Source: a virus (lineage: Duplodnaviria; Caudoviricetes). Taken from it: 64,000 nt of DNA. Below, one piece after another: positions 21,711 to 49,870 of this stretch; within the stretch, counting starts at the first letter, position 1, and every line of letters starts with the position of its first letter. The notes below the pieces were generated by a model. That model saw only the letters and a list, made by a program, of their open reading frames with translations. It had not been told where the DNA came from and ran no database searches. The translations under genes and the position numbers were made by a program. The stretch spans positions 1 to 64,000 of the IMG/VR virus record IMGVR_UViG_3300031994_000006; one strand, given 5' to 3'.

Positions 21711-22940
21711 TTACAGTGAAAAATAATCCTGTTCGCCGTTACCGAAATTGCGATCCCAGATCTTGTCAGGCGTTATATCAAAGGAACCGCAAATATCGAC
21801 CATCTTAGTAAACAGGGCCATGAGCTCTGCATTACATTTCAGTTCAATCTTATAGCTGCTGAGTATATCCTCAGGCTCCTCAAACCATGAATAATCATAC
21901 GGATTATTGGTACCGTAATTTCGATATGACTTATAGCCGATCATTGATACCATATCCGCCGGATTACCGTCTTCCGCGAGCATGGTCGCGAGCATGATAA
22001 GACATTCCCATTTGGTGGCGTATTCAGGCTCAAAATCACACTCATTGATCATATTATAGGCCTTATAGAAGATCTCGGCTGCAGGTTCTGAAATCATATA
22101 ATAATCCATAAAGGCCTGAATCGGTGAACCCTTTACGGCCTCGATACCGGAACCCTCTGCGGTATCGGCGACAAACTCCTGTTTTCTCGCTCGATTGCCG
22201 GCCCTGAAGGCCTCGCCCATAATCCTCTTGCCCGTCGACGTATACGACATCGGATCGTGTCCGTTGCCGGCGATGGTCTCGAGCTTCTTAATGACGGAGA
22301 GCAGCTTATCCTTCTTCATCATGTAAGCGTACAGGATCTTGCCCAGTCCGAGCTGCTTGCCGGTCTTGTCACCCGTCCAGACCTTGGAGTCCGCAAGGGC
22401 GTCCTTGTGCCTGTTGATCTTGTTCACGACTATGTCGGCCGCCTCGATGCACCCTTTGACGGAATTACAGACGGCTATCGCGAGCTGGTGTCCCTTCGGC
22501 GCGGACGCGTCCTTGCCGTAGATCAGCCTGACGAGATCCTTGTGCGCCCTGCGGAGGGTGAACACGTTGTTCTCGAGCCGCGGCTCCAGCTTCCTGAGCA
22601 TGCCGAGTGTCCATTTGGCGTCAGCGCCCCACATGGTCTTCTCGGCGCCGCCCTGCAGGTCGAAGAAATGGACGAGCTGCCTGATGGGATAGTACGGGCT
22701 GGTGCGATCGCGGCCCTCGTTTGACACGAGCGTCCTCACGAACTGGTTAAGTGAAGTCTCGTCCGAGTAGTCGACATCCTTGAGGATATCCGCATTGAAC
22801 CTGCCCTTGATCGGCTTTCCGTCGACCTTGGTACGAGGACGCCTTTTCCTCGGCGTTTTCTCCATATCGTAGATTGAAGCCTCCAGGATCAGGCTGTATA
22901 CTTTGTCAAGTGTTACCATAAAAAATAAAACCGGAGTCAA
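21711..22940 (-). CDS. putative internal head protein with one EAFRAGNRARK tag and an appended cargo module
   Basis: MGEAFRAGNRARKQE at 22176-22214; AATAAATA upstream at 22951-22958. Confidence 0.7.
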   Translation of the reverse strand: MTPVLFFMVTLDKVYSLILEASIYDMEKTPRKRRPRTKVDGKPIKGRFNADILKDVDYSDETSLNQFVRTLVSNEGRDRTSPYYPIRQLVHFFDLQGGAEKTMWGADAKWTLGMLRKLEPRLENNVFTLRRAHKDLVRLIYGKDASAPKGHQLAIAVCNSVKGCIEAADIVVNKINRHKDALADSKVWTGDKTGKQLGLGKILYAYMMKKDKLLSVIKKLETIAGNGHDPMSYTSTGKRIMGEAFRAGNRARKQEFVADTAEGSGIEAVKGSPIQAFMDYYMISEPAAEIFYKAYNMINECDFEPEYATKWECLIMLATMLAEDGNPADMVSMIGYKSYRNYGTNNPYDYSWFEEPEDILSSYKIELKCNAELMALFTKMVDICGSFDITPDKIWDRNFGNGEQDYFSL

Positions 22941-23407
22941 ATTCCGATTTTATTTATTAGCTTATAGATCTCAATCTTATTCTTAACGGCATACTCGATA
23001 CTCCGAATGTTGTCTATCGTCGAATCCATGAACTTGACCTGATCTTCCATCAGCGATATACGTTCCCTGAGGTCATTCAGCTGTGCCTCGATCTGGTTAT
23101 TGATCTGGACGTCCGACGTGTACCGTATCTGCGACACCGTCTTATACTGATTATACAGGGACGCGTACTGGACCTTGTAGTACCTCGTCAGCTTGCCGAG
23201 TGTCCGCAGTACCAGATGATAGTACTCAATAGCGTCCTGATGGACGGAATACACGTTATTGAGCATCCTGTCGATACCGGGCATGTCCTTCAACATCCCG
23301 TTCAGCTCCTTGACACGTCCTGTCCAGGTCTCCTGCACGGCAGTGAGCTTCTCCTCAAGAGAAGTCTCCTGCTGTGCGGATACACTGCTGTCGGCCTGCT
23401 CAAACAT
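22937..23407 (-). CDS. uvsY: UvsY-like recombination mediator
   Basis: Helical 156-aa protein directly downstream of UvsX, with C-terminus IDNIRSIEYAVKNKIE resembling UvsY. Confidence 0.6.
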   Translation of the reverse strand: MFEQADSSVSAQQETSLEEKLTAVQETWTGRVKELNGMLKDMPGIDRMLNNVYSVHQDAIEYYHLVLRTLGKLTRYYKVQYASLYNQYKTVSQIRYTSDVQINNQIEAQLNDLRERISLMEDQVKFMDSTIDNIRSIEYAVKNKIEIYKLINKIGI

Positions 23408-23409
23408 GA

Positions 23410-24678
23410 CTACTCGCCGGTTTCAGTTTCAGGCTCGTCGATGAGCTCGTCGCCGAGTTCGCTGAGGTCATCGAACGACGACTGATCGGGCAGCTCGAAC
23501 TCAGGCTTGATGATGTTGTCGTTGATGTAATGCAGGTACTCGTCCGTAAACACCCTCGGCGAGAAGAACTGATCGGGCGACACCTGACAGCCGAGATGCT
23601 TTACAACAATGCCGACACCTTTAGTCAAAGTCTTCTTAGGCCATGCATACAGGACTCCGTTTTCAGGATGCTCGAATCTGTACGGCTGACACTCCAGCTG
23701 CTCGTCCGGCTTGAGCTTCATGAACTCGGCCTCCGTCAGGCACTTGCCCTGCATGACGCCGGCATTCTCCCAGTTCATGTATTCCTGGAGTCCCGTATAC
23801 GGGTTCGGTGCCTTGAAGTACGGAATTGCGAACGTGGACACCTTCTTGATGCAGAACCTCGACTTGTCGATGGTCGCCTTGACGAGCACGCCGGCCTTCT
23901 TGACGTTCGCATGCTTCTCGGCCTCTTTGTCGTTCTCCTTGTCGACGAGCTTCGACGTGGACAGCATCACCGTGATGGAGCCCGCGTACTGCAGTCCAGA
24001 ACCGGACGCCAGCTTCTGGCCGGGGACGTACGCGCCGATATCGGCATAGGTATGGGACACGGCTATCGTCGGTATCTGCAGCTTGGACAGGGGCACCGCG
24101 TTCACCCTGAACAGGGCCTTGACCTCCTTGGCCTTCGTGAAGTCCGCCTTCTGGTTGCCGGTCATGATATCGGCCTTCTCCTTGTCGGACGTCAGGTTGC
24201 CGATAGAGTCGATGACGAGGATGATCTTCGGGCGCTCGCCTCCTGCGTCGACCTTCTTCTGAAACTCGTCGCACATGTTGGCGATGAATCCGGCCGTCTC
24301 GGATATGGTATTGACCTGGCGGATGATGAAGTTGTCAGGATCACATCCGAGCCTCGCCACGAAGTCCCTGTCGATGGCGCCCTCTGAGTCGAGGTAGACG
24401 GGCGTATATCCCATCTTCTGCGCCTCACGGCAGATAGAGCATGCCAGGTACGACTTGCCGGTGCCGGACGGACCCGCGAGCGTCGTCACCCTGCCCGACG
24501 GGATGCCCTTGAATATATCGCCGGACAGTGTCGCGTTCAGGATGTAGTTGCCCGTCGGAATCCATTCGTCAATCTTGGAGAATGTGGACTTGCTCAGTAT
24601 CTCCACACTGTTGTCAATCTTGCTGAGCGTTCCGAAAATGTCAATCTTCGACTTGGCTTCTGTACTTTTCTTTCCCAT
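23410..24678 (-). CDS. uvsX: UvsX/RecA-like recombinase
   Basis: IPTGNYILNATLSG, AGPSGTGKS, YLDSEGA, VIDSIGNL and SGSGLQYAGS. Confidence 0.92.
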   Translation of the reverse strand: MGKKSTEAKSKIDIFGTLSKIDNSVEILSKSTFSKIDEWIPTGNYILNATLSGDIFKGIPSGRVTTLAGPSGTGKSYLACSICREAQKMGYTPVYLDSEGAIDRDFVARLGCDPDNFIIRQVNTISETAGFIANMCDEFQKKVDAGGERPKIILVIDSIGNLTSDKEKADIMTGNQKADFTKAKEVKALFRVNAVPLSKLQIPTIAVSHTYADIGAYVPGQKLASGSGLQYAGSITVMLSTSKLVDKENDKEAEKHANVKKAGVLVKATIDKSRFCIKKVSTFAIPYFKAPNPYTGLQEYMNWENAGVMQGKCLTEAEFMKLKPDEQLECQPYRFEHPENGVLYAWPKKTLTKGVGIVVKHLGCQVSPDQFFSPRVFTDEYLHYINDNIIKPEFELPDQSSFDDLSELGDELIDEPETETGE

Positions 24679-24703
24679 GTCTTTATCTGTTGTTTATTCT
24701 GTA

Positions 24704-26599
24704 TCAGATACCGAGCTCCTTCTGCCTCCTGACGGCCTCGGAGTACGGAATCATCGCGTTTTCGTATATACCGCGGGAAGTCTTCTTGAACGGATACCCG
24801 CCGTTGATCCACCTCTGTTTGTCCTGTATCCAGACGACATCGTACCTGTCCTGATCCGTCGACGGCAGGACACACTCGTCAATCCTGGAGCTGACGACCT
24901 CATGCACCTTCCTCATCTTGGGCGCGTCGTACTCACGGTCCCTGTTGACGTTGTTGCTCTCGTACCCTGTGACGTCGTCGGTCTCGGTCTTGATGCGGAC
25001 GCAGAGCCTGTCCCTGATGTCCTCGAACCTGATATCGGGCTCGCGGTCGAAGTAGTACGACAGGCCGCACGCCTTCTGGTACCTGCGGTGGTCGAGCCCG
25101 TACCGGATGCTGTACGCGTTTATCGTGGCGCCGAGTATGACGTCGTCGTACGCCTTGAACACCTTCTCCCAGTCATAGTGCCTGTAGTCCTTGAACCGCC
25201 TGGTCACGGTCCTCGACATGATGAGGAATGAGCCCTGTCCGTAGAATCTCATCTTGCTCCAGAAACAGGCCTCCAGCTCGCCCGTCCACATCACGCTGTC
25301 GTCATGCAGGTTCGCTATAAAATCGCGCGTCAGCGGGACGTTAATCCACGTGGACGTGTTCGTGCGGACGATATAGTCGTATTTCATGCCCTTCTCATCG
25401 AGCATGTCAAAAACGGCCATCGTCTTCGAATATGTGTTCTCAATGGCGTCGCCCGCGTCGACGCGGATCTTGTGCTCTTCGGGATAGACGCCTGCCGGCA
25501 GCCTGTCGGTCGCGGCGGTATAGAACCAGAACTCGGTGTTCGGCACCTCGCCCCTGATTACCGGACCGGCCCACGTGTCGAGTATGGCCTTCTCCATATC
25601 GGCATACTGCGGGTTGTTACAGGTCATCGACAGTATGACGACCTTCCTGTTGAGCACCGGCAGCACCGGCATCACGGTCCTGTAGTCGAAGTGCGGGAAT
25701 ATGTACTGCCTGGGGAACGCGAGCACGTCGACCGTATGGTCCGGCGTATTGAACAGGACGTTCGCCTTGCCGCGCTCGCCGGGCCTGAGAGAGGGGAACT
25801 TGTCGAAACACTCGACGCACTGATCGGTCAGGGCGTCGGCGTCCTTGAAATAGGTCCGGCTACTCCAGCAACGGAGCTTCTTCCTGATATCCGCCCTGAG
25901 CCATGACAGATGATGCATCTTCAGTTCCTTCCACGGGAACTCGTACGGCTCCACAAGCAGATGATGCACCTTCTGCGACTGCTTGCCGTCAGGCGTCTGT
26001 GTCATGACCGGATTGCCCTTGTCGTCATAGACATAAACCTTAGGCACCTCATACCGGCGCGTCGGATCGGACGGCTTTGGGAAATCGAGGCACTGCCATT
26101 TGAACCTGTACTTACAGGATGACACGAACGGGACGTACATGCCGTCCTTGAACGGATATACGAGCTGTGTATTATAGTCCTTGTAGTAGTTGACGTACCT
26201 GCAGTACGTGACCTCGAGATTCTCCTCGTCAATCTTCTTGAGCGCGTTCTCGAATGACGTACGGCTGTAGAACTCATCGGAGTCTATGACAAGGCAGTGT
26301 GTACATCCGGCGGCCTGCAGGTGATCGATGAGCATATTGCGCTTGTCGGTCTCCTGTATGCGTGCGAACTTCTTAAGGTCGGTTTCGACGAATACGATTT
26401 CGTTGACGTCCCCACGGTCCTTGAGCTCCTTTATGAAATGCAGGTCGGAAGGATCGATGGGATCGCCGTGATATGAGACAGACTGGACGCCGGCGACCAC
26501 ATAATCGATGAGTCCCTTGAGTTCCCATAGTATGTTGGGTATATGCTCCATGCCTTCGAAACACACGATGGCAAGTCCGAGCTTCTTGATGTTCTTCAA
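24704..26599 (-). CDS. two-domain glycosyltransferase (GT-A DxD domain + GT31/galactosyltransferase-like domain)
   Basis: LVIDSDEFY in the N-domain; YDYIVRTNTSTWIN, GQGSFLIMS and YDDVILG in the C-domain. Confidence 0.65.
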   Translation of the reverse strand: MKNIKKLGLAIVCFEGMEHIPNILWELKGLIDYVVAGVQSVSYHGDPIDPSDLHFIKELKDRGDVNEIVFVETDLKKFARIQETDKRNMLIDHLQAAGCTHCLVIDSDEFYSRTSFENALKKIDEENLEVTYCRYVNYYKDYNTQLVYPFKDGMYVPFVSSCKYRFKWQCLDFPKPSDPTRRYEVPKVYVYDDKGNPVMTQTPDGKQSQKVHHLLVEPYEFPWKELKMHHLSWLRADIRKKLRCWSSRTYFKDADALTDQCVECFDKFPSLRPGERGKANVLFNTPDHTVDVLAFPRQYIFPHFDYRTVMPVLPVLNRKVVILSMTCNNPQYADMEKAILDTWAGPVIRGEVPNTEFWFYTAATDRLPAGVYPEEHKIRVDAGDAIENTYSKTMAVFDMLDEKGMKYDYIVRTNTSTWINVPLTRDFIANLHDDSVMWTGELEACFWSKMRFYGQGSFLIMSRTVTRRFKDYRHYDWEKVFKAYDDVILGATINAYSIRYGLDHRRYQKACGLSYYFDREPDIRFEDIRDRLCVRIKTETDDVTGYESNNVNRDREYDAPKMRKVHEVVSSRIDECVLPSTDQDRYDVVWIQDKQRWINGGYPFKKTSRGIYENAMIPYSEAVRRQKELGI

Positions 26600-26844
26600 T
26601 TCAGGTACCTTTGATTTAGGCTATATATCAGCCCTTTTCATTTAAACGCTTTTATACATGATAAGTCATGTTTTTAGCATAATAATAAGCCTTTATGCTA
26701 ATTATAACAAAATCCGTGAAATTTTAGCTTAATTTCATGTGACCTTCTCTCACGCGCGCGATTCTATTTTTGTTAATAGGAGATTCTGAAAAGGGGTTGA
26801 TAGAAGTGATTCACTTATTCTGTAATTTATTGATCAACCGGCCT

Positions 26845-26932
26845 TATGCATGTGCATGTACGTGCGTAAGCACGTGTACATACGCGATCATGCGCAACGC
26901 GCAGATATGCGCATATACGGCATGCGCGCGTG
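26845..26932. repeat. alternating purine-pyrimidine tract
   Basis: TATGCATGTGCATGTACGTGCGTA... is in phase over 42 nt with one mismatch, and further RY blocks run to 26932. Confidence 0.8.
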
Positions 26933-26952
26933 AGACCTGATAAATAACCGGT

Positions 26953-27522: not shown

Positions 27523-27596
27523 GCGGTAATAAATACACAAACTGAGGTCGGGACCCTGTCCCGGTTAATAAAAAAGAAACCCAGAGGGAGAGAATA

Positions 27597-28097: not shown

Positions 28098-28139
28098 GGG
28101 ATATCCGAAGAGAATACAAAGGCGGGGAATTTCCCGCCT

Positions 28140-29385: not shown

Positions 29386-31686
29386 TTATTCTTCTGTCAT
29401 CATAGACTCGATGAGGTTGATGAAACCCTGTCCGTACGGCGTGCCGTCGTTCCGGACATCCGTCTGCATGGCCTCGTTGAATCCCTCGATCTCCTCGCGG
29501 GCGGACTCGAGGTCGCGCTGGCGGTGACGGAGTCCGGTACGCGCCCAGAACTCGTCGACGTCCGCCTTGGACTCGAGTATGTAGCAGGCCGCCATTTCGT
29601 CAATCGATTTCCTGACCGCCTCGGGCGCCGCATTGTAGAGATCGATGTCAGCCTTGTCCGCGAGCCTGATGTAGTTCTTCTCAGAGAGCGCCCTGTCGGT
29701 AAGGGGACGCTGCCAGAGCGCATTGATCTGACGGATGTCGAAAATCCTCTGCTCCCAAATCCAGTCGGCACAGAGCTGCTTGTCATCGTCATTGAGCTGC
29801 GCGAACTTGTTGAACTCCTGCTCGGACAGTGAGACGCTGAACGGGTACTTCGCGATTATGGACTCGCGGACGGATTGCCTGCGTCCGTGGGACTCGAGGA
29901 CCAAGTTGTATCGGTCCATAATCCTCCTGGTGCCCTCACAGACGTCATTCTTCTTGCGCTCGAGATCACCACACGCCTCATCGATGTCGCACGTGCAGTC
30001 CTTACCGCACTTGCCACACTTCGGACACTTACAGTCATCGTCATCGCATTCCTCAGACTCAGTCACCTTGCCGGCGCTGTCATGACGCTCGACCTTGTCG
30101 TTCTTGCCGGTAGCATTGGAGTCGATTTCGTCCTTGTCGCCGTCAGTCTCTTCCTTCTTCTCTTTCTCACGGGCCTGCTTGCCGATATTGTCGGCCTCTG
30201 AGCCGAGCTTACCGTCCTTCACGGCATTGGGCTTGGTATCGGCCTCCTCAAGAGGCTCCTCCGACTCCTCAATTTTCTTCTCCTTCTCACGGGCCTGCTT
30301 GCCGATATTGTCGGCCTCCGAGCCGAGCTTGCCGTCCTTGACCGCGTTGGGCTTGGTCCTTTCAGACTCATCGACCTCCTCGGTGCCGTCCTTCTTCTCG
30401 GGTGCGGCGCATCCCTCATTGGTCTCGTCGCCGCCGTCAGGATCCTCCTCTGATATGTCGATTTTGGGATCGTAGTCGGGATTCTCCTCATCCTTCACAT
30501 CATCCTCGTCGGTCGACTCATAGAGCTTCTTAAGCTCCTTCTTCAGTTCGGTCATGGCCTTCTTGTCATCCCAGACCTTGGTGTATCCTGTATTCTGCAA
30601 GGCCTCGTAGAGTGAGAGGGACTCTCCCTTCATACAGGACCTGTAGACGCTGTTCGCGATTTTCTGTATGTCCATGGATTCGTTAAACGGGTTTTCGTTT
30701 CCGATTGCGGGACCGCCGCCCGCCGCACCGGGATCGGCTCCGGGACCGTCGGCCTTCGTCGAGTATTCAGGCTGGATGTCCTGGATGGCGTCCGTACCCT
30801 GCTCCTTGTACTCGGGGACGATGTCGATGATGTCTTCGGCATTGTGCTGCACGGGCTCCTCGGCCGGCTCCTCGCCTCCCGTCTCACCTGACATGTCGCC
30901 CTCAGGCTGCTGAGGCTGCTGATCAAGCCCGAGCTCAGCGGCCTTTTCAGGGGTGACGTTCACCTGGACGTCCTCGCTCATCGGCCTGTAGAGCTCCTCT
31001 TTGTTGACCTTGATGCCGTTGATATCGACTGTAATCTTCGGAGTCTCGTCGGACTCGAGGATCTGGAATGAGCCGGCGTCCATACCGAGGCTCTCAGCCT
31101 TGTTGAGGTCCGTGGCGCCTTTCTGCGCCGCGACCGACTCGTTCATAAACGAGGTCAGGCTTGTCCTGAGGGACTCATTCACACGGTCGAGCTTACACTG
31201 CTCGAAACCGGGCACGCTGACGATGTCATATGTGAATATCTGCTGTATCGCGACATGTGAGTCCTTACCGACCGAACCTGCAGCACGGGACGATACAAAA
31301 AGCGGACATCCGGCATCGACGATGGCCTTCATCGTCTTGCCGTTCGGGGTGTCGAGCAGCTCGAGCGTACCCATGACGCACTTCTTCTCCTTGTCCCACC
31401 AGAGGTCCGTTATCTTATGGGAGGCCTCCTTGAGCGAAATCTCGAATCTTCCGTCGGGATGGTCGAGCTCTCCGAGGATACAGCCCTCCTTCTTGATCTT
31501 GTCACGGAGATAAGCCAGGTGTGGAAGCACCTCGGACTCGTCGTATATACGTCCGTTACGGTTGACGTCGGTACCGTTCGCAGGGGTGAATATGCCTGTA
31601 TACTTATAGGACTTTCCGCCGCCCTCGGCCTTCACCTCGTTCAGCGGGGTAAGCGACCTGTTACGGACTATAAGTTTCTTGCTCAT
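29386..31686 (-). CDS. gp21: prohead core protease (T4 gp21-like, U9/S77) fused to a long acidic scaffold-like tail
   Basis: NRNGRIY, LGELDHP, SHKITDL, LDTPNGK, VSSRAAGSV and YDIVSVPG; late promoter at 31722-31729. Confidence 0.92.
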   Translation of the reverse strand: MSKKLIVRNRSLTPLNEVKAEGGGKSYKYTGIFTPANGTDVNRNGRIYDESEVLPHLAYLRDKIKKEGCILGELDHPDGRFEISLKEASHKITDLWWDKEKKCVMGTLELLDTPNGKTMKAIVDAGCPLFVSSRAAGSVGKDSHVAIQQIFTYDIVSVPGFEQCKLDRVNESLRTSLTSFMNESVAAQKGATDLNKAESLGMDAGSFQILESDETPKITVDINGIKVNKEELYRPMSEDVQVNVTPEKAAELGLDQQPQQPEGDMSGETGGEEPAEEPVQHNAEDIIDIVPEYKEQGTDAIQDIQPEYSTKADGPGADPGAAGGGPAIGNENPFNESMDIQKIANSVYRSCMKGESLSLYEALQNTGYTKVWDDKKAMTELKKELKKLYESTDEDDVKDEENPDYDPKIDISEEDPDGGDETNEGCAAPEKKDGTEEVDESERTKPNAVKDGKLGSEADNIGKQAREKEKKIEESEEPLEEADTKPNAVKDGKLGSEADNIGKQAREKEKKEETDGDKDEIDSNATGKNDKVERHDSAGKVTESEECDDDDCKCPKCGKCGKDCTCDIDEACGDLERKKNDVCEGTRRIMDRYNLVLESHGRRQSVRESIIAKYPFSVSLSEQEFNKFAQLNDDDKQLCADWIWEQRIFDIRQINALWQRPLTDRALSEKNYIRLADKADIDLYNAAPEAVRKSIDEMAACYILESKADVDEFWARTGLRHRQRDLESAREEIEGFNEAMQTDVRNDGTPYGQGFINLIESMMTEE

Positions 31687-31748
31687 GTCAATTCAGTATC
31701 TGAAGTGATTTTTTACTGGTTTATTTATCAAATACGGATCTCCGCCGA

Positions 31749-34700
31749 TTATTTAAGTCCGTTCGGCCGGGCCTTGGTAATGAACTCATCGGGCGACGTT
31801 ATCGTATGTGCCTCGACCGCGTCCTGCATCAGCCTGAAGAACATTATGCTTTCCTTCGGGATGACGAACGGGCAGTCCGTGAGATACGAGACCTCATCGG
31901 AAATCTCACCGGGTTCAGGCGTCTCCTGGTCCTGTGAGTTCCTCTTTCCCCTGACGGACGGCTCATGCGGATCGCTCAGGTCCCTTGACTCGAGCAGCCG
32001 ATCGACCGTCGACGGACTGTCCTTCCATTTGACGTACGCCTTGGGCGCCAGCCTCTGCCGGATCCTTGCCCTACTGCCGGCGAATGCCTCCTTTAGCATC
32101 CTCGCGAAGTCGGACAGCCTGTCCGTATTGACAAGCCATACCCTGTCTGAGAATTCCGTAAAGTCCTGCCATGTAGGATCCCTGGTGACGATTTCACCTT
32201 CAAACGTGTTCCTCAGGGTCGTCTCATCCGTGAACCATTCAGGATATTCATACTGGAAGTTATATCTGACCGTATAGTGTTCCCTGCCGCTGAGCGCGAA
32301 CTTCACCATCCTCACCCATACCTTATCGCCGAGCACATACAGCCTGAGTGACCACTCCTGCACGAACTGTTTCATATTCCCGCGCCCCTCGGCCGACCTC
32401 TTACTGCCTTCCGGCATAAGCCTGAAGATGTCTATGAAGTTCATGTCTTTCGGCATATGGCCGCTCTCATAGCCCATGACGCCGCGGACGAACGAATTCT
32501 CAATATACACGACGCCCGCAAGATGCCTGGTCCTACGATCCTGCGGATTCTCGACAACGACCCATTTGTCGTCCTCGAGCATCTTCTTGATCATGGCCGT
32601 GAGCATCTCCGCGGCCGACTTGCCGTCTGTATGGAAAGGACTGTCGAAGTCGAACGCCGACTCTTTCTTCCTGGCCTGATTACCGGCCCTGAACGCCTCG
32701 TTTACATTGCCGAAGGCCCTGTCGATACATTCCCTGAATTTCGCGGTATTCTCCGGATTGAGCAGCATCGTCGGATATCCGTGTTCGACCATAAGATGGG
32801 TTTCAAGATTGATTTCCGAGAACATATCCAGATACGCGTTCGGTTCTTCATTGCGTTCAAGGCTGTCACAGAAATAGTCCCATGAAGTACTCATCGATTC
32901 ATCATAGGACTCGGTCGAGATCCACAGCCTGGCCCATCCGCCGTAGACGCTGACGTTATTCGGCGAATCACAGTCGAACTCAAATGTAATCCTCTCATCC
33001 AGGCCGTTGTATTCGACGGTCGGGGAATACACACCGAGCTTAATCGACTTGTCATCGAGATGTGAATAGTCAAGAAGCTCGGTATTATCGGGATACCTGT
33101 TCGTTATATCCTTGAAAAGCCTGAGAACGTCTTCGGCGTTACGGCATCCGAGAGATACCGACTCGACTGTATCCTGTACAGACTCCTTCTTCCTCGCCCT
33201 GTTGCCGGCGCGGAACGCCTCGATTACCTGACCGGCAAGATGACGCTTTGTCATCCATTCCTTTACATTAATACAGTTTTCATTTTCGCCTCCGGGTTTT
33301 TGGATTTTAATTCCGAGCCGTTTGATGAAAGGCATGAGACTCTCCGGGATATCCCAGATACAGTCACATTTGACAGTCAGATCAGCCGGTAAAAAAGTCA
33401 GTCCTTCACATCCTTTGATAAACAAATCACCTTCAATAGTCAGTCCCTGAGGCAAAGATCTCAGATTGGTGCAGTTTTCAAGATGCAGGCAGTCTCCGAC
33501 CGTCATTCCTTGCGGTAATGACGTCAGTTCGGTACAGTTCTCGAGAAACAGATTGCCTTTGAAATCGGTTAAACTTGGAGGAATGCTTGTCAATTTTGTA
33601 TAATCAAGAGATAAATCGCCTCCGACGACAAGATCGGCGGGCAATGAGGTTATCGGACAGTCTGAAAGTTCCAAATTCTCTCCTACGTACAGACCGGCGG
33701 GCAATGATTTTAATTTACTGCAGCCGCTGAGGCCTAACGATCCTCCGACCTTCAGTCCCTGGGGCAGTGAAGTCAGGCTAATACAGTCATAGAGAAGCAG
33801 ACTGCCGAAAACCTCGAAATCAGAAGGCAAAGAACTCAGATTGCTGCAACCGGTCAAATCCAGGAAATCAGACGTCAGTCCTTCCGGCAGTGAAATTATG
33901 TCATCGCAATAAGTAAGATTCCATTCATCACTGTCAAGATAAATCCTGTTATTCCTGATTTCAGCTTCAACACCGGTCTGTTCCTCAAATTGTTCAATCC
34001 GCGCTTTAAGAAGGTCGACTGTCTGTACAGCATTCTGAACGGATTCTTTCTTCCTGGCCCTATTGCCGGCGCGGAACGCCTCGCTGACGGGCCATTCGAT
34101 GCCGCATATGTCCCTGAGGATTCCCATGCGGTACTGGCCGAACGTCATGCCGTTCGACATTTTAGAGTCGTTGGCAAGTTCGTCCAGGTACATCTCCCAG
34201 TCATAATGCACGAATCCCATGTCGTCGACGTGCAGTATCCAGAAAGCCCCGTGGGGATCGCCCTCTATCGGCCAGAGGATTCCCTGCCACTGTGTGACGT
34301 CGTCGTCGAACGTCACCATATAGGTATCGACCTTCCCGGGATCCGAGACCGTCTCACACCAGTAGAACAGCCATCCCTGCGGCTCGGGGACCGCGTCCGG
34401 ATCCGGCAGCTTGTATCCCCTGATATCGTCACTGTCCTCCCATGAGCATATACGTCCGTCGCCGAATACGTCGACCTTATTCACAGTATAGCCCTTTTGC
34501 ATCATCAGGGAGATGACCGATGCCATATAGCTGCCGGATGACACCTGATTGACCGCACCGACGGCGGATTCCTTCTTCCTTGCCCTGTTGCCGGCCCTGA
34601 AGGCCTCGTCGGTCCTCGGGACACGTATCATGGCATCCATGACATTGAAGTCCGTACTGCGTCCCCTGTTGGGCCTGAAGCCGAATCTCCTGTAGAACTT

Positions 34701-34967
34701 CTGCAGCCTGCCGACCGATGTGGCGCCCATTGACTTGTCAGGTGTCAAAGTCAATGTCCAGCCCTGTCTGTCCGCCAATCCGGCCAGATCCTTCATGAAT
34801 CTGGTACCGGCGCCCTTGCCGCGTTCCCTGGCCGCGATACGGCTGATCTTCAGATAATTACGGGAAAGGCTGAGCGAGAGCTCGCTCAGTCCGTATTCCT
34901 CCATCAGTCCGGGATCATTGATACAGATGCCCTTGTCCGAGAGCTTGTCGATAAGACTGTCTATCAT
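31749..34967 (-). CDS. modular polyprotein: GNAT domain + tag-delimited cargo modules including an LRR module
   Basis: RGKGAGT...FYRRFGF GNAT; tags at 34569-34607, 34044-34082, 33183-33221, 32661-32699, degenerate at 32058-32090; LxLxxCxxLxSLPxGLxV repeats; lies between portal and protease. Confidence 0.8.
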   Translation of the reverse strand: MIDSLIDKLSDKGICINDPGLMEEYGLSELSLSLSRNYLKISRIAARERGKGAGTRFMKDLAGLADRQGWTLTLTPDKSMGATSVGRLQKFYRRFGFRPNRGRSTDFNVMDAMIRVPRTDEAFRAGNRARKKESAVGAVNQVSSGSYMASVISLMMQKGYTVNKVDVFGDGRICSWEDSDDIRGYKLPDPDAVPEPQGWLFYWCETVSDPGKVDTYMVTFDDDVTQWQGILWPIEGDPHGAFWILHVDDMGFVHYDWEMYLDELANDSKMSNGMTFGQYRMGILRDICGIEWPVSEAFRAGNRARKKESVQNAVQTVDLLKARIEQFEEQTGVEAEIRNNRIYLDSDEWNLTYCDDIISLPEGLTSDFLDLTGCSNLSSLPSDFEVFGSLLLYDCISLTSLPQGLKVGGSLGLSGCSKLKSLPAGLYVGENLELSDCPITSLPADLVVGGDLSLDYTKLTSIPPSLTDFKGNLFLENCTELTSLPQGMTVGDCLHLENCTNLRSLPQGLTIEGDLFIKGCEGLTFLPADLTVKCDCIWDIPESLMPFIKRLGIKIQKPGGENENCINVKEWMTKRHLAGQVIEAFRAGNRARKKESVQDTVESVSLGCRNAEDVLRLFKDITNRYPDNTELLDYSHLDDKSIKLGVYSPTVEYNGLDERITFEFDCDSPNNVSVYGGWARLWISTESYDESMSTSWDYFCDSLERNEEPNAYLDMFSEINLETHLMVEHGYPTMLLNPENTAKFRECIDRAFGNVNEAFRAGNQARKKESAFDFDSPFHTDGKSAAEMLTAMIKKMLEDDKWVVVENPQDRRTRHLAGVVYIENSFVRGVMGYESGHMPKDMNFIDIFRLMPEGSKRSAEGRGNMKQFVQEWSLRLYVLGDKVWVRMVKFALSGREHYTVRYNFQYEYPEWFTDETTLRNTFEGEIVTRDPTWQDFTEFSDRVWLVNTDRLSDFARMLKEAFAGSRARIRQRLAPKAYVKWKDSPSTVDRLLESRDLSDPHEPSVRGKRNSQDQETPEPGEISDEVSYLTDCPFVIPKESIMFFRLMQDAVEAHTITSPDEFITKARPNGLK

Positions 34968-34987: not shown

Positions 34988-36856
34988 TTACATAGGCGCC
35001 GCAGGCGCGGGTGCGGCACCGGCCATCGGATCAGGCGCAGGCGCGGCCCCGGCCATCGGGTCCATACCTGACATCGGGTCCATACCTCCTGCCATAGGAT
35101 CACCGCCCATCATCGGATCCATGCCTCCCGCCATCGGGTCACCTCCCGCCATCGGGTCCATACCGCCTCCCATTCCGGGATCCATGCCTCCGCCGGGTGC
35201 TCCGCCCTGTCCGGCGACCTGCTGGGCCGCGAGTATCTGTATGTCAATGGCCTCCTTCTTCTCCTGCAGCAGGTAGTTCTCGTTCGTCTTGAGGTCCTCC
35301 TTGGTGAGTCCCATGTACTTCTCAATGAGGAACTTGACGCTGAACGCGGGTGTGCCGTCCGCCTTCTTGAGTCCCATAAGCGAGCTGACGGCGGTCGCGC
35401 CCTGCTGTGCGGTCGCGCGTTCCTTGGCGAGCTCGAACTGGTTGTCGTTGTTGTATTTCAGGCCGATGGAGTTCGGTATGACGCTGTTGAGCGCGAAGAG
35501 AGGCTGCTTCAGGCAGAACTGTATCCAGGTCGCCTTAAGCAGTATCTCCTTGAACACTGACTGTATGCGCTTGATGAATCTCGCGAACGCGGCCTCTTCT
35601 CGCGTTATCATGGCGTCTCCGTTCGCGGGGTTGTTCGGCGCGGCCTGCGGGTCGAGCAGGAACCTGTTCGCCGGGATCTTCGACTCCAGGATGAACCTGC
35701 GCCACCAGTACTTGAGCTCGTCGGTCGAATTGAGGTTGTATCCCTCGACGCCTATCTCCTCGATTTCCGTCTGAATGCCGGCCATGCTCGGGAAAATGTA
35801 CGTCTTGTTGAACGAGAACTTCGGCTGGCCATTGACGGTCATTGTACCGTCGATGTCGTTGATCTGTGTGTCCTCGTTGTAGTACGCCTTCAGCTCATTG
35901 AGCCTCTGCCGCTGACGGTCAGGCGTCTGGTCGCCGACCGGCACCACGATCTTGATCCTCTTCTGGGCGTTCTGGATGTTCCAGATGATGCGGCTGTTCT
36001 CCAGCTGCCTGAGCATGTTGAACGTCCTGGTGAGCGACTCGAGGTACGATATACGGCTCGTGAAGTTACCCTTAGCCCATGAGATATAGATGATGTGCGA
36101 ATCCGGTATGATGCGCTGCTTCTCGGCGTCGTCACGGTACTGGTACCATATCTTGATGTCCTGCCCGGTCGACTCGTCCTTCACGATGTCCGGCTCGAGC
36201 GTCGTCGGATCAAGCTCCTTGAAGCCGATGATGTCCTTGGCCTGATAGGAGTCTTCGTCATAGTCGAACAGTATCTCGAACGCCAGGAAGCCGTCACAGA
36301 GGAACTTCTTCATGTACTCCCATGCATCGTTGGAGTTTCCCCATCCGAACATGTCATACACGCGCTTGTACGACTCGTCAAGCAGCTTCAGTATCTTCTC
36401 AGACTCCTCGGTCTTCTTCAGCCGGCGCTTCAGGCCGTCCGTGTCGAGGTACGCGAAGAAGTTGTTCTGGTCATATACGACGGCATCGTCCGCTATAGTC
36501 TCGAGTATGAAGTTGATCTCGCCGTTCTGGGCGAAGTCCCTCAGATACTGGCGACGCAGCGGATAGTCACGGTCGAAGAAGCAGACATAGTCCGAGTTGA
36601 TGCGGGTGATATCCTGCGTCTTGGCATAAAGCGAGTCGTAGAAATCCGTGGATACGGTACGGTTGTACATCGTATCGCTGTCACGGTTGGTCTCGGTCGT
36701 ACCGTGCGACAGTGACGACTTGATAAGGGAACGGTCCCAATCGAGACTGATGCTCGACAGGGTCATCGTATTGCTCTTCTTTATGCGGCCCTTGAACTCC
36801 TTCTCGGCGTATTCGCCGGGCGAGTAGCTCCTGAGCAGGTAGTTTTCTTGAGGCAT
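34988..36856 (-). CDS. gp20: portal vertex protein (T4 gp20-like)
   Basis: ISYLESLTRTFNMLRQLENSRIIWNIQNAQKR, EIEEIG, ELKYWWRRF...KIPANRF and ITREEAAFARFIKRIQ; GMDPM tail; late promoter at 36882-36889. Confidence 0.9.
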   Translation of the reverse strand: MPQENYLLRSYSPGEYAEKEFKGRIKKSNTMTLSSISLDWDRSLIKSSLSHGTTETNRDSDTMYNRTVSTDFYDSLYAKTQDITRINSDYVCFFDRDYPLRRQYLRDFAQNGEINFILETIADDAVVYDQNNFFAYLDTDGLKRRLKKTEESEKILKLLDESYKRVYDMFGWGNSNDAWEYMKKFLCDGFLAFEILFDYDEDSYQAKDIIGFKELDPTTLEPDIVKDESTGQDIKIWYQYRDDAEKQRIIPDSHIIYISWAKGNFTSRISYLESLTRTFNMLRQLENSRIIWNIQNAQKRIKIVVPVGDQTPDRQRQRLNELKAYYNEDTQINDIDGTMTVNGQPKFSFNKTYIFPSMAGIQTEIEEIGVEGYNLNSTDELKYWWRRFILESKIPANRFLLDPQAAPNNPANGDAMITREEAAFARFIKRIQSVFKEILLKATWIQFCLKQPLFALNSVIPNSIGLKYNNDNQFELAKERATAQQGATAVSSLMGLKKADGTPAFSVKFLIEKYMGLTKEDLKTNENYLLQEKKEAIDIQILAAQQVAGQGGAPGGGMDPGMGGGMDPMAGGDPMAGGMDPMMGGDPMAGGMDPMSGMDPMAGAAPAPDPMAGAAPAPAAPM

Positions 36857-36930
36857 ATTAGAACTGTATAATCTTCAGCCGTATTTATCGGCTTAATATA
36901 TAAAGCTGAAAACATAACCGTTAAAGCGAA

Positions 36931-42871: not shown

Positions 42872-42888
42872 GGATTATCTATCGGCCG

Positions 42889-43602: not shown

Positions 43603-43619
43603 ACGGTAAAATGTGTTTT

Positions 43620-44096: not shown

Positions 44097-44239
44097 AAAA
44101 TATCGAAACCTGTTGTTTTTGGCCGGATATTTATCCTGGTTTTCCGGACGGGCCGGATCTGTCCCGTCATACATTAAACGCATGAACATCATGTGTGTCA
44201 CGCGCACGCGCGAGCCTAACCTTGACTTTTCTGAACCTT

Positions 44240-44291
44240 CACGTGTGCATGCACATGCATACACGTGCACACGCATGCGCACACGTGCACA
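44240..44291. repeat. 52-nt perfect alternating pyrimidine-purine tract
   Basis: CACGTGTGCATGCACATGCATACACGTGCACACGCATGCGCACACGTGCACA. Confidence 0.9.
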
Positions 44292-44735
44292 ATCCATCGC
44301 CCAACCACCGGGCGATGCCCTAAACTGGTAAAGTGGAACACTCCTACCTCACCCTCCCGAAATCCCCCATCGGGGTGGACTGATGTTTAATCAGTTCATC
44401 TGATTTATCAATTTCCCCGAGCGCGCGCCCACGCGTAGGGTTTGTAATTTATTGGAAATCAAATAGTTAGGATGTAAGATTTTTCTATTTTGCAATATCT
44501 AAAGTTTGCAAATAAAATAGTTAAAAAAATCTAATTTTATGAAAATCTGTGAAAATATATAAAAATTCGTTAATTCAATAAGCTTTTTAAATACTTTTGC
44601 AAACAACTGCAAATTCAAATGGAAGGTAATCCGGCTCCGGATATGCCGTTCAAGGCTTTCAGGCGTTATATGATAGATATGACGGCCCGTCATAGGGCCT
44701 GTTGACCTATTGAAATTATACTGATTGACTAATTT

Positions 44736-46385
44736 ATGATTTATGCTGACATAACAGACGACGGAAAGTTCCTCACCCTTACAGGGATGACGATGACGGA
44801 GCTCAAGCAGCTTCAGATTTCGTTTACCAAGGAACTTGACGATGCATGGCTGATAAAGAAGAAGACCCCCTGGGCCGCGTTCGAGACGAAGTTCATGAAC
44901 GACTACGGCATGATACCGGCCGGACTGTGGCTTGAGCTCGTCAAGATAAGCCGCAGGTGGTCGCTTCCGCTCGATTTCAGCCCGAAGGCTGTCAGCATGC
45001 TCGTGGATCAGTCCGTCAGCGAGCAGGTGTTCAAGAACTACTGCAGCATGCTGTTCGAGGACGCCAGAGACGGCGAGGGCCATCCGGTCACGCTCCGCGA
45101 CTATCAGATAGACGGCGTGTTCAATCTCGTCAAATACCGCAAGGCCTGCCTGGAGATCACCACCTCAGGCGGCAAGACTCTCATGGCCTACATCCTCTTC
45201 AGGTTCCTCCGTGACGTAATGAACGTCAAGAGGCTCCTGTATATCGTGCCTAACAAGAACCTGGCGACGCAGTCGGCCGAGGCGTTCGACAAATATGAGA
45301 AGTGGACGCACAGCGACCATTCATGGACGAGCGTGGCCCTCGCGTCCGGTACCAAGAAGAAGGATCGCAGGTTTTCGAGTGAGTGTACGGTGCTGTTCGC
45401 GACGTTCCAGACGCTCAACAATAAGGACATGCAGTTCTTCCAGTCGTTCGACGCCGTATTCGTCGACGAGTGTCATCATGCACAGGCGAACTCCATTAAG
45501 AAGATATTGACGATGTGCACCGGCGCCAGTTATGTGTTCGGCATGACCGGCACGTTCCCAAAAGAGGACTCACATGACAGATTCCTTATCGAGTCCTTCA
45601 TAGGCCCGCACGTGTTCACGCTCGAGTCGTTCCAGCTCATACAGGAAATCGGCGGCGCCTGCCCGGTGGTCGTCGTGGAGGAGCTGCTCGACTGGGCGTC
45701 GACAGATGACAAGAAGGCCCTGTACGAGATCAGGAAGACCGCGGCCGGCCAGGACCTCGGCACCAAGCTCCTTCGTCAGGAGCAGGACTTCGTCAACGGC
45801 AATCCCGACCGCCTGTACTATATCTGCAACCAGGCCATCAAGGCGAAGGGCAACTGCATGATACTGTTCGGCGACGTCAACATCGGCAAATACGGTCATA
45901 AGGTGTGTGAATACATCAAGGACAACTCGGACAAGAACGTCTACTATGCAGATGGCTCTACACCTGTCCGTAACCGTGAGATCTATAATGACCTGCTTGA
46001 GAACGATGTCTCCGGCAATACGATTATCGTGGCGTCCATCTATACATACGGAGAGGGTATCGACCTGCACAACCTGTACTCCATATTCCTCGTGAATTCC
46101 CTGAAGAGCGAGAAGCAGCTGCGCCAGATACTCGGCCGCGGCATGCGACTCTATACGAATCCGGAAACCGGCGAGGAGAAGAAGATGGTCGTGCTGTTCG
46201 ACTTCGTGGACGACCTGAGGTACGGCAAGAAGGACGACTCGCCCTGGAGGACCAACAACTACCTCTGGCGGCATCATGAGGAAAGGCATCAGATCTACGT
46301 CGACCATAAGTTCCCGGTATACCAGCGCGAGGTCAAGCTGGGATACCAGGCGGCCAGGTCCGCCAAGGGAATAGATATGTCATGA
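44736..46385 (+). CDS. uvsW: UvsW-like SF2 helicase
   Basis: LRDYQ, TTSGGKT, VDECH, GMTGT, GEGID, QILGRGMR, LFDFVDD, NYLWRHHEER. Confidence 0.9.
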   Translation: MIYADITDDGKFLTLTGMTMTELKQLQISFTKELDDAWLIKKKTPWAAFETKFMNDYGMIPAGLWLELVKISRRWSLPLDFSPKAVSMLVDQSVSEQVFKNYCSMLFEDARDGEGHPVTLRDYQIDGVFNLVKYRKACLEITTSGGKTLMAYILFRFLRDVMNVKRLLYIVPNKNLATQSAEAFDKYEKWTHSDHSWTSVALASGTKKKDRRFSSECTVLFATFQTLNNKDMQFFQSFDAVFVDECHHAQANSIKKILTMCTGASYVFGMTGTFPKEDSHDRFLIESFIGPHVFTLESFQLIQEIGGACPVVVVEELLDWASTDDKKALYEIRKTAAGQDLGTKLLRQEQDFVNGNPDRLYYICNQAIKAKGNCMILFGDVNIGKYGHKVCEYIKDNSDKNVYYADGSTPVRNREIYNDLLENDVSGNTIIVASIYTYGEGIDLHNLYSIFLVNSLKSEKQLRQILGRGMRLYTNPETGEEKKMVVLFDFVDDLRYGKKDDSPWRTNNYLWRHHEERHQIYVDHKFPVYQREVKLGYQAARSAKGIDMS

Positions 46386-49300
46386 AGATCGATTTTGACA
46401 TTAAGAAAACCGTTAAGGAGGCCTTCAGGGCCGGCAACCGGGCCCGTAAGAAGGAGGCCGTCGCCGATACCGTCGAATCAGTCGACAAACTGCAGCAACA
46501 GATTGACAGATTCAGGGAGCAGACCGGATATAAACTTGAAATCAGGAACGGCAGGCCCTATTATGATAACTTTATAGATCTTGAGAACTGTACCGATCTG
46601 ACGGAACTGCCTGACGGCCTGACGGTCAAGAACTATCTCTGTATCAACGGATGTACCGGACTGATGAAGCTGCCGGACAATATGACCGTCGGCCGCGATT
46701 TCTATCTTAATGACTGTGTTAACCTGACATCGCTGCCTCACGGCCTTACCGTCAAAGGCAGTATGTATCTCAAGAACTGTAACGGCCTGACTTCATTTCC
46801 GGCGGATTTGACTATTACCGGATTTTCGATTTACAGGGTTCCTGAGAGCCTTTTCCCGTTTTTCGAGAGCATCGGTGTCGAGGTCCGGTTTATCGGCGGT
46901 ATCCATACGATAGACGCGAAAGACTGGATGGACAGGCGTCATATGGTCAATGAGGCGTTCAAGGCCGGCAACAGGGCCCGTAAGAAGGAGTCCGTTCATG
47001 ATTCGGTATCTGACATACACGATGACGAACCTGTGACGGATGCCGCCGCGGCCGCTGATTTCCTCCGCAATCTCAATAAGAGATTCCCGGGCGTCACCAG
47101 GTTCAAGGATGACCGGTATGAGTCCACATATGTCGAGTTCGCCGTATGGGACGTGAATCATCAGGATACCATGTGGTTCTCGTTCTGGAGGGATTCAGCT
47201 AACCTGGCGGCAGACAGCTGCCTGGATCCTGCCGTTACGCTGATGATATGGTCGGAGGCCGTCGTCAAGGGCGTGCGCGGCCACTGGAAAGGCTATAATG
47301 ACAAGGAGGCTATCCGTGAGAACTATGTCAAAATGCTGCAGGAGTCCGGACTCCCTATCGACATGGCCGACGTCGAGGCACGCCGCAAGCCGAGGCTCAG
47401 GCTGACCAGCAATTCTCTGGCGAGGCTTGCCGCATATGTCGCCCGTCAGGCCGAGATGCAGATCATGGCGCCGCTGGGCAAGGCGTTCCAGCTCGAGGAG
47501 GCGTTCAAGGCAGGTAACAGGGCGAGGAAGAAGGAGTCCGCCCAGGATACGGTCAAGTCCGCCGACGCATACTTCAATTCGGAAAGCATTGACGAGCTTG
47601 ACTCGTTCATCCGGATGGTATGGAAATCCGTATGCGGCGATACCGATATCGACGCGCCTTGTATGGACAATGATCATTATGACAGCGAGGCCGGGATATG
47701 GTGGGGACCGCTGAAATTCCATCTTGAATCCGGGAATATAAAATACCGTATATGTTTCCTGAAGACCGCCGATATACAGGCGTTTAACAAGGCGTTCAAC
47801 AAGGCCGGCGAATCGAATGACGAGTTTGGTCAGGAATGCCCTGCCAAATGGGCGTTCGACATGCATGTCCAGATCGGCGATGAGATGGCGTCTGTCAGAC
47901 TCTACAGGATCGAGCCGTATTCAAAGTACAGCAATACGAATGTGGTGACCTATCCGGTAGGGGTGCCGCAGCTGACAGAGGCATTCAGCGTCCTCAGGCT
48001 GATTTATTCACGAGGTATCCATACCAGGGAGCATGAGGCCGGATGGAGTACGCCGGGCAAGCAGGGCAGTTACTTCTACGCATGCAGCAGATTCTCCGTA
48101 CAGACATGGAGGAATCATATCCTGCCTATCGATGATCATGAGCAGCTGCAGAAGTATTTCACGGATACGGCCAGGGCCGTGTACTTCCGGGAATGCGACA
48201 GGTCGGTGGACGAGGCCTTTAAGGCCGGCAACCGCGCCCGTAAGAAGGAGTCCGTACAGGATGCCGTAGAGGCCCTGTCGTCATTGGAGTTCTATGTCCC
48301 GGCTATGAACGACATCCCCAAGACGGTGCTTGAGAAGGGATCCCCGGCGATTGAGTCGCTGTTCACCCGGAACGGATTCGGCATTCATGAGAAGAGCACA
48401 TACTTACATCCGAAGGAGGCCCTGTGGACCGTCAATATAGACGGCAGCCCGCGTAAGCATATATCGGTCGCATATGTGCAAAGGGGATCCGCAGGATGGG
48501 TGATGTTCCTGAAGATCGGATTCACCGTCATCAAGTGTCTGGTCATAAACAGTCCTGAATGGCTGGGATTCCTGAAGGATCTGACCAGTAAGGCCGATTT
48601 GTTCAGGCTGTATTTCTGGATGACCGGAGACGGCGGCGCCACGCAGGAGATGCGCGACCTGAAGCACAGATATATCGAACGCAGCAAGCCTGTCTACGGA
48701 AATGCTGTGAACCTGACGGAATTCTATGATGCTATATTGCTGCCGTTGATAGATCATTACGGTATCAATATGCCGGACTGTTGTATGTTCGCCGATACAG
48801 TCACGCCGGTTGACATGCTCAGGAAAACCCAGACATACGCCGACATCAGGGAATATATCTCAAAACTGGACGTCAATAATCTCGGCGAGGCCTTCAGGGC
48901 CGGCAACAGGGCCCGTAAGAAGGAGTCCGCCGCCGATACGGTCCAAGAGGTCGACAAGGATCTGAAGGATGAGGATATCGACAGGATTATTGACGATCTG
49001 TGCGGGAAATACCCGGATGTCGCGCATAAGAAGAACTATTATCATGCCTTCAACGGCGACGTCCTGGAGATATACGACGACGATGCGGACGACAATGCCG
49101 TACTGGTGTTCGAGTACCCGAGTGAGAAGGACGACGGAACCGTAAGGGTCCTCGTCTCTTCGTACAGGAGAGTCTATGCACAGGGATCCGAGGAGCAGAT
49201 TGACAAATCCTATAAAATCATCTGCGACAGGCTTATCGACGACAACGTCGATTCCGGGACGGTCACGGCCGACGACGACGGCTGTATGATATTCGAGCTG

Positions 49301-49870
49301 ACACCCGGGAACATCGCCGCGATATACAGGTACGCCGAGCTGTGTAACAGCCTGACGGAGGCATTCAGGGCCGGTAACAATGCACGTAAGAAGGAATCCG
49401 CACAGGATGCGGCCGAATCCGTCGACGGCATACCGTACCCTGATGATATCGGGAATCCCGTCAAAGTCGCCGAGTGCCTGATGAAGGTTGCGGAAACGGC
49501 CCTCGGTCGACCGGGACTGGCGGAGGCGACCGAAATAGAGGTAAACTTCCTGAATCATGAGAACGACGACAATATCGTCGCGTCCGTCGATACGACCATC
49601 AGCGGTGTGACACTGATACTGATAGTCAGGGGATTCAGTAAGGTGCGCGGCGACATACCCGTCAGCCCGTCCGGCGGCATATGCGTCGGCGGCATTATGG
49701 CGCCCAGGAAAGGGGATCCGCGTGAAGTCGGCCCTTCCGATCCGTCGTTCCGGCCGGGATTCAGGACGTCTACCGTCAGTTTCTGGCCGGTGTCCGACAT
49801 GGAGTGCTGGAAGTCGCTCGTCGGTAAATATGAGGAGGATCTCAGGGCCGTGACGGCGGCCTCAAAGTGA
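46382..49870 (+). CDS. modular polyprotein with six EAF[RK]AGN[RN]ARKKE tags
   Basis: Tags at 46418, 46952, 47498, 48212, 48887 and 49358; the first module is LRR; AATAGATA 4 nt upstream. Confidence 0.85.
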   Translation: MKIDFDIKKTVKEAFRAGNRARKKEAVADTVESVDKLQQQIDRFREQTGYKLEIRNGRPYYDNFIDLENCTDLTELPDGLTVKNYLCINGCTGLMKLPDNMTVGRDFYLNDCVNLTSLPHGLTVKGSMYLKNCNGLTSFPADLTITGFSIYRVPESLFPFFESIGVEVRFIGGIHTIDAKDWMDRRHMVNEAFKAGNRARKKESVHDSVSDIHDDEPVTDAAAAADFLRNLNKRFPGVTRFKDDRYESTYVEFAVWDVNHQDTMWFSFWRDSANLAADSCLDPAVTLMIWSEAVVKGVRGHWKGYNDKEAIRENYVKMLQESGLPIDMADVEARRKPRLRLTSNSLARLAAYVARQAEMQIMAPLGKAFQLEEAFKAGNRARKKESAQDTVKSADAYFNSESIDELDSFIRMVWKSVCGDTDIDAPCMDNDHYDSEAGIWWGPLKFHLESGNIKYRICFLKTADIQAFNKAFNKAGESNDEFGQECPAKWAFDMHVQIGDEMASVRLYRIEPYSKYSNTNVVTYPVGVPQLTEAFSVLRLIYSRGIHTREHEAGWSTPGKQGSYFYACSRFSVQTWRNHILPIDDHEQLQKYFTDTARAVYFRECDRSVDEAFKAGNRARKKESVQDAVEALSSLEFYVPAMNDIPKTVLEKGSPAIESLFTRNGFGIHEKSTYLHPKEALWTVNIDGSPRKHISVAYVQRGSAGWVMFLKIGFTVIKCLVINSPEWLGFLKDLTSKADLFRLYFWMTGDGGATQEMRDLKHRYIERSKPVYGNAVNLTEFYDAILLPLIDHYGINMPDCCMFADTVTPVDMLRKTQTYADIREYISKLDVNNLGEAFRAGNRARKKESAADTVQEVDKDLKDEDIDRIIDDLCGKYPDVAHKKNYYHAFNGDVLEIYDDDADDNAVLVFEYPSEKDDGTVRVLVSSYRRVYAQGSEEQIDKSYKIICDRLIDDNVDSGTVTADDDGCMIFELTPGNIAAIYRYAELCNSLTEAFRAGNNARKKESAQDAAESVDGIPYPDDIGNPVKVAECLMKVAETALGRPGLAEATEIEVNFLNHENDDNIVASVDTTISGVTLILIVRGFSKVRGDIPVSPSGGICVGGIMAPRKGDPREVGPSDPSFRPGFRTSTVSFWPVSDMECWKSLVGKYEEDLRAVTAASK

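Follow-up and report, generated by a model that had tools for sequence, protein, structure and literature searches.

Repeated basic tags behind predicted prohead protease sites suggest head-packaged polyproteins in a T4-type phage, and a Prevotellaceae zinc protease bears the same peptide

Here, we describe a repeated basic peptide, called the tag below, in a 64,000-nucleotide (nt) stretch (the window) of the Caudoviricetes virus record IMGVR_UViG_3300031994_000006, a single-contig genome of 207,794 bp with a GC content of 54%. Each tag begins directly after a glutamate, and the tags divide the proteins that carry them into modules. An earlier note on this DNA counted 11 copies plus a degenerate one in three genes; that count is right within the window, and the whole genome holds 43 copies in 13 genes, which sum to 8,992 amino acids (aa), or 13% of the genome. 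Six tagged genes carry 2 to 10 tags. Positions are window coordinates unless marked as genome coordinates, and each tag is listed from P3, the residue two before the Glu, to +18.

46382..49870, + strand: six-module tagged polyprotein with a 13-aa leader; module 1 is a leucine-rich repeat (LRR) module
46382..46420, + strand: 13-aa leader ending in Val-Lys-Glu, a predicted capsid-targeting propeptide by analogy with the T4 capsid-targeting sequence (CTS; PMC7411985)
46412..46474, + strand: tag 1 of the 46382 gene
46946..47008, + strand: tag 2 of the 46382 gene
47492..47554, + strand: tag 3 of the 46382 gene
48206..48268, + strand: tag 4 of the 46382 gene
48881..48943, + strand: tag 5 of the 46382 gene
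49352..49414, + strand: tag 6 of the 46382 gene
31749..34967, - strand: polyprotein between portal and protease, with an untagged N-terminal GNAT-like module followed by five tagged modules, one of them an LRR
34551..34613, - strand: tag in the 31749 gene
34026..34088, - strand: tag in the 31749 gene
33165..33227, - strand: tag in the 31749 gene
32643..32705, - strand: tag in the 31749 gene
32034..32096, - strand: degenerate tag in the 31749 gene, cut-site half intact
21711..22919, - strand: two-module gene with a 13-aa leader, a basic untagged domain, a tag and an acidic domain; orthologues in L003 and L016
22158..22220, - strand: tag in the 21711 gene

The 12 window copies were recovered at the residues first reported, with the Glu at aa 13, 191, 373, 611, 836, and 993 of 46382..49870 (+), at aa 121, 296, 583, 757, and 960 of 31749..34967 (-), where the copy at aa 960 is the degenerate one, and at aa 243 of the - strand frame 21711..22940. 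The triplets that precede them also read as the note had listed them, aliphatic in 11 of 12. The conserved stretch extends to about 19 residues beyond the Glu, where 12 had been proposed. For the 21711 gene, the most likely start is the ATG at 22919 and not 22940, which would give it a 13-aa leader that falls in one class with those of other tagged genes. The first 11 tag residues have a charge of +5.

The 41 strict tag copies in the genome are 41 distinct DNA sequences, all in frame and inside long open reading frames, with identities of 0.89, 0.93, and 0.58 at codon positions 1, 2, and 3, and no out-of-frame DNA copy was found in the genome; the repeat is not a product of chance. Because the DNA copies all differ, vary at the third codon position and stay in frame, these sequences indicate that selection acts on the tag peptide, as the note had argued from synonymous codon variation. 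Tag DNA is also where relatives differ. A metagenome scan yielded 24 related loci, in which orthologues differ by entire modules: P0004 is an orthologue of the 46382 gene minus module 1, with the break exactly at a tag; relative to the gene at genome position 183344, L012 is two modules short, and L008 has a first module that is missing from L009, the DNA changing partner inside the tag in both cases. Comparison of these loci shows that whole modules have been gained, lost, and duplicated by crossover in tag DNA, and the tag is therefore also a recombination joint. If that were all, the repeat would be the DNA joint of a recombination cassette with an incidental peptide, and a host gene described below would have captured phage DNA. 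The mapped crossovers, together with a same-codon rate among tag copies (0.56) slightly over that expected from codon usage (0.47), are in keeping with this; the 41 differing, in-frame DNA copies with variable third positions speak against it, and it is now largely refuted. One joint, at L031:17650-17710 (-) (genome ~189650-189710), is partly duplicated over 20 aa, with a truncated tag followed by a repeat of upstream residues, which records an out-of-register crossover at the tag.

In front of the tags, P3 is Leu, Val, Met, or Ile at 37 of the 43 sites, versus 25% before other glutamates (p ~1e-16), and is aliphatic at 97 of 110 sites once relatives are included; P2 and P4 to P8 vary freely. 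The proteases of T4, phiKZ, and SPN3US cut after Glu within a three-residue motif (PMC5694885). In T4, internal proteins are brought into the core by a 10- to 20-aa leader that is later removed (PMC7411985). The predicted cutter and other neighboring genes are as follows.

29386..31686, - strand: T4-type prohead protease (S77) fused to an acidic scaffold, predicted cutter (PF03420, E 1.9e-12)
34988..36856, - strand: T4-like portal protein; best named matches are Lak phages of Prevotella, 44 to 46% identity
49885..50538, + strand: probable small terminase; weak matches (E 0.005 Pfam, 0.001 PHROG), context only
51968..53224, + strand: phage ClpX, over the NCBIfam cutoff, 57 to 58% identity to ClpX of two Prevotella metagenome-assembled genomes (MAGs)

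The genome is that of a large uncultured T4-type phage related to Prevotella Lak phages, which are closest by the portal. The 31749..34967 gene does sit between portal and protease, as the note had stated. The protease-scaffold protein also matches phrog_207 (E 1.2e-38), and its His, Ser, and Asp motifs were seen. It ranks first in the genome by density of aliphatic-x-Glu sites followed by Ala or Ser, and the capsid protein has four such sites, including Glu68-Ala; the scaffold and capsid sites carry no tag. On these sequence patterns, we consider it likely that the tagged proteins are packaged and cut by the prohead protease. Packaging and cutting could also hold if the tag were only an extended recognition site for that protease and a recombination joint, with no later role, in which case the host copy would imitate a cleavage product and target the protease. 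A single constraint would then cover both halves of the motif, and the phage tag always adjoins a protease-type site. However, the scaffold and capsid sites must be cut yet have no tag, 19 conserved residues are more than such a site needs, and the T4 and SPN3US proteases require the three-residue motif only (PMC5694885). We regard this explanation as unlikely.

A leader of 9 to 14 aa ending in Glu stands directly ahead of the first tag in 10 of the 13 tagged genes, and no gene ends with a tag; the tag therefore belongs to the N terminus of the module downstream. The leaders fall into two classes, to which the 22919 start adds another leader with an aliphatic-x-Glu ending. Furthermore, a late-promoter heptamer common to the portal, protease, capsid, and sheath genes is found ahead of several tagged genes, here and in relatives; it or a one-mismatch variant precedes 22 of 162 genes overall.

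22951..22957, - strand: late-promoter heptamer of the 21711 gene
31722..31728, - strand: late-promoter heptamer of the protease gene
36882..36888, - strand: late-promoter heptamer of the portal gene
46371..46377, + strand: one-mismatch heptamer variant, 4 nt ahead of the ATG of the 46382 gene

Late-type promoters had been ascribed to two of the three window genes. The 21711 gene has a perfect heptamer and the 46382 gene the variant; the 31749 gene has none of its own and is probably also driven by the portal promoter at 36882..36888. The 4-nt spacing at the 46382 gene recurs at the tagged genes at genome positions 69653 and 102922. A heptamer 4 nt ahead of the ATG (window 46371-46384; genome 69642, 103634) implies nearly leaderless late mRNAs. 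Short leaders ending in aliphatic-x-Glu also occur without a tag in late-promoter genes in 13954-20705 (-) and 20802-21671 (+), which encode a 1344-aa protein, an 874-aa ATPase-like protein, and a 289-aa protein and are probably further head-internal proteins. A 652-aa gene at L027:8896-10854 (-) (genome 100896..102854) likewise has a leader of the class seen in tagged genes and no tag.

The genome encodes 42 modules of 112 to 382 aa (median, 190), of which 38 have a net negative charge. They form 28 families, and 61 are found across all relatives. The modules are thus mostly unrelated, as first proposed, with the qualification that 12 of the 42 are paralogous LRR modules of variable repeat number, among them module 1 of the 46382 gene and module 2 of the 31749 gene in the window. 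Nearly all modules lacked a match in Pfam, PHROG, NCBIfam, and PADLOC scans. The untagged first module of the 31749 gene is GNAT-like, matching phrog_10691 at aa 21-129 (E 2.9e-18), a PHROG family 3925 positions long.

Module 1 of the 46382 gene was modeled with both flanking tags (AlphaFold). The LRR core had a predicted local confidence (pLDDT) above 90 and the tags were helices with pLDDT of 50 to 65; in Foldseek, the module gave weak LRR matches only. The note had named a motif integral to one repeated fold as an outcome that would tell against its proposal. Because the modeled LRR core is above 90 while the tags are low-confidence helices, the tag is not part of one repeated fold, and the 28 families point the same way. 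The same model, in which leader, Glu, and tag form a single continuous helix, is what would be expected if the proteins stayed uncut, as beads on a string with the tag as a helical spacer or docking motif. Against this stand the strong P3 rule next to free P2 and P4 to P8, the single-module genes, which have a leader and a tag and never a trailing tag, and a host protein that begins exactly at the predicted P1' Ala. We therefore judge uncut proteins to be improbable.

That host protein emerged from a profile search of 1.84 billion representatives, which returned 43 clusters in all, 4 of them beginning with Met and the tag. With so few clusters in so large a set, the tag is therefore confined to one phage clade and a host protease family. 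No tag copy turned up when IMG/VR, GenBank phages, and three Lak genomes were searched with the tag or the genes, although near relatives may be absent from these sets. An exact-pattern GTDB scan had missed the host tag owing to variant residues. The host family consists of proteins of ~385 aa in which HExxH and a downstream Glu are invariant, and 28 homologues start with Met and the tag, that is, exactly at the predicted cut, with Ala as P1'. Met is usually removed ahead of Ala by Met-aminopeptidase, and its removal would leave the same N-terminal Ala as the predicted phage cut. Mostly 16 to 20 of 21 residues are identical between a host tag and the best phage tag, and where the tags vary, those of phage and host do so at matching positions and with matching residues. 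No part of the host protein is better conserved than residues 2-13, at 83% compared with 68% for the catalytic core and 35 to 39% immediately after them; over the deepest division of the family, the tag stands at 84% versus 41%. By a quick version of the family tree, the tag is present in two deep clades with synonymous divergence between them. Its codons differ from the phage modal codons and between the host clades, with 44 to 49 of 63 nt matching the best phage copy. The host tags thus keep the peptide with other codons, and the protease is unrelated to any phage module, both of which weigh further against a captured recombination cassette. Since no phage module is homologous to it, the zinc protease is not simply a captured cargo gene.

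In the structural model of the host protein (whole-model pLDDT, 81.6), the tag segment at aa 1-22 is unstructured. A fold search returned the zincin fold (5zum, Z 10.0, root mean square deviation 4.5, 211 aligned), and Foldseek returned nothing under E 0.001. With its HExxH helix and third-ligand Glu on a modeled zincin fold, the protein is predicted to be a gluzincin metallopeptidase; it falls in no Pfam, NCBIfam, or PADLOC family. The genes are chromosomal, mostly on a low-GC island that adjoins comM and contains two AAA ATPase genes. PADLOC and NCBIfam, which cover known systems only, gave no defense match for the protease or its neighbors except a weak match of an AAA gene to IetA. A variable gene of 363 to 391 aa (L046:9224-10318 [+]; L040:11194-12285 [+]) always lies downstream of the tagged protease on the comM island; it has no family match, falls in Bacteroidota clusters in Atlas, and is a possible partner effector.

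The host N terminus is swappable: a paralogue with 81% identity has a different N terminus, and unrelated N termini have been exchanged between close cores. Family members with other N termini lie on a different island, a second Prevotella island (L047, L062, L064) with DUF2779, Sel1 repeats, an LRR, a ligase, and a RecA-like ATPase. A strongly diverged tag sits on cores close to tag-bearing alleles at L043:5103-6293 (+), P0053, and P0055, through decay or as a match to an unseen phage variant. Six pattern-scan matches to other host N termini were rejected as single chance matches.

Borrowing could have run in the other direction, or the peptide could be shared: it would then be a signal of Prevotella itself, recognized by a host factor such as an unfoldase or a partner of the zinc protease, and copied by the phage to use or swamp that factor. 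The presence of the tag in two synonymously diverged deep host clades is consistent with this, as are the two AAA ATPases on the host island and the ClpX of the phage. A profile search of the Prevotellaceae MAG with one host gene found that gene to be its sole tag copy, and no other copy was found in the 401 genomes checked for that genus, so that the tag occurs once in 1 of 401 genomes, in a low-GC island gene, which argues against a general host signal. Moreover, the host swaps its N terminus between near-identical cores, as a tracker would, whereas the phage keeps 43 copies fixed. We find this direction improbable.

We therefore favor, with moderate confidence, a model read from sequence in which the prohead protease splits head-packaged polyproteins, and each resulting module keeps a tag that is read once the cut is made and that the host copies. 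The products of the 13 tagged genes would be cargo inside the head of a T4-type phage that infects Prevotella-like hosts. Precursors made late would reach the prohead core through their short leaders, following the logic of the T4 CTS. The protease would then cut after aliphatic-x-Glu at each joint, as the site rule suggests, and release ~42 mostly acidic modules, each retaining the same basic N-terminal tag. Because one leader would suffice for packaging, yet each module has its own tag, we consider it reasonably probable that the tag functions after the cut. It would most likely keep each piece inside the DNA-filled head and see it ejected together with the DNA, or else address the piece in the infected cell; retention and ejection are our first choice because the tag is basic on acidic bodies. 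Other candidate readers are a protease exosite, the phage ClpX, and a host factor. The phage ClpX (51968..53224) is alternatively a candidate hijacker of a host protease. Tag DNA would meanwhile serve as the crossover point at which modules are added, dropped, and duplicated.

The zinc protease, with the tag as a free N terminus, would probably bind that same reader and act in antiphage defense, as a decoy or stowaway; that the host uses the tag against phage at all is a tentative proposal, somewhat short of an even chance. A fuller version, held with the same reserve, is that the cargo code is used too widely across the phage to change and that the host wears the mature tag as a swappable N terminus, riding into progeny heads or binding the tag reader to trigger defense. 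Other host N termini would then copy the tags of other phages.

The claim that these are virion-packaged, protease-cut polyproteins has thus gained support from the P3 rule, the same sites in scaffold and capsid, leaders, late promoters, tag-to-tag exchange, and the host start at the cut. Several observations count against the model. At six of the 43 sites P3 is not aliphatic, and two of these have Phe or Thr; the structural model places the cut site in a continuous low-confidence helix that must unwind to be cut; and the modules, save the LRRs and one GNAT-like module, have no anti-defense or enzymatic match in Pfam, PHROG, or PADLOC. The pairing of host and phage is indirect, through the Lak-like portal and a ClpX with 57 to 58% identity to those of two Prevotella MAGs, and no CRISPR link was found, the two MAGs being without Cas1 and hence without a spacer link. 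Finally, the Leu-Gly-Leu and Ser-Phe-Thr host N termini could not be traced to phage by pattern scans, tblastn, Lak profile searches, or word-index searches; having had no positive control, these negatives are weak.

It is not yet settled how myoviruses choose, keep, and eject their internal proteins, and in T4 the only known element is a leader that is discarded. With its 19 residues on 42 unrelated pieces of cargo, the tag is a candidate signal for retention, ejection, or addressing that can be tested directly, and it could serve as a portable handle by which one gene loads several proteins. The unassigned modules, of which 12 are variable LRRs, form a library of candidate counterdefense proteins. 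If the Prevotella protease does use the tag, this would be antiphage mimicry of a kind we have not found described and could be a new defense principle, and the variable N termini of its family would make it possible to probe the cargo codes that uncultured gut phages use. In the literature, we found no paper on the tag, such a cargo system, phage polyproteins of this kind, or host copying or mimicry of a cargo tag.

Among known systems, the tagged cargo most resembles T4 IPI-III and Alt, whose CTS is removed by gp21 (PMC7411985, PMC3012670, PMC12373910), in its T4-type portal, S77 protease, short leader ending in Glu, predicted cut after Glu, putative late promoters, and hypervariable accessory cargo. 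T4 internal proteins, however, are single small proteins with only a leader in common, which is discarded, whereas up to ten modules are chained here, each with a 19-aa tag predicted to be kept. Pfam and PHROG scans found no homology to IPI-III or Alt. Judged by this lack of homology, the chaining, and the retained tag, the cargo would work like T4 internal proteins and is not a member of that class. The ejection proteins that SPN3US and phiKZ cut at Ala/Ser-x-Glu are similar in belonging to large phages whose prohead protease processes many head proteins after Glu, at several sites per precursor; their cuts remove propeptides, and the relevant portions of PMC5694885 describe neither a repeated retained tag nor a chain of unrelated modules. 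Polyvalent proteins (Iyer et al. 2017, PMC5512222) likewise join many unrelated domains, 2 to 15 per polypeptide, and are proposed to be packaged, injected, and processed; the tagged proteins have 2 to 10 modules from 28 families. In contrast, polyvalent proteins have recognizable enzyme domains, and their processing is ascribed to a metallopeptidase of their own, with no uniform junction tag described in the parts of PMC5512222 consulted here. Compared with their domain set (MPTase, ArdC-N, ART, methylase-helicase, and others), only GNAT-like and LRR modules were recognized here, with no peptidase match, by Pfam and PHROG profiles in place of those of Iyer et al. The host protease, for its part, resembles the gluzincin folds of DPP III, oligoendopeptidase F, and M1 aminopeptidases. 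Defense zincins include Lit and CapP, and Lit is activated by a phage peptide. That peptide acts on Lit in trans, whereas the host protease carries a phage peptide as its own swappable N terminus.

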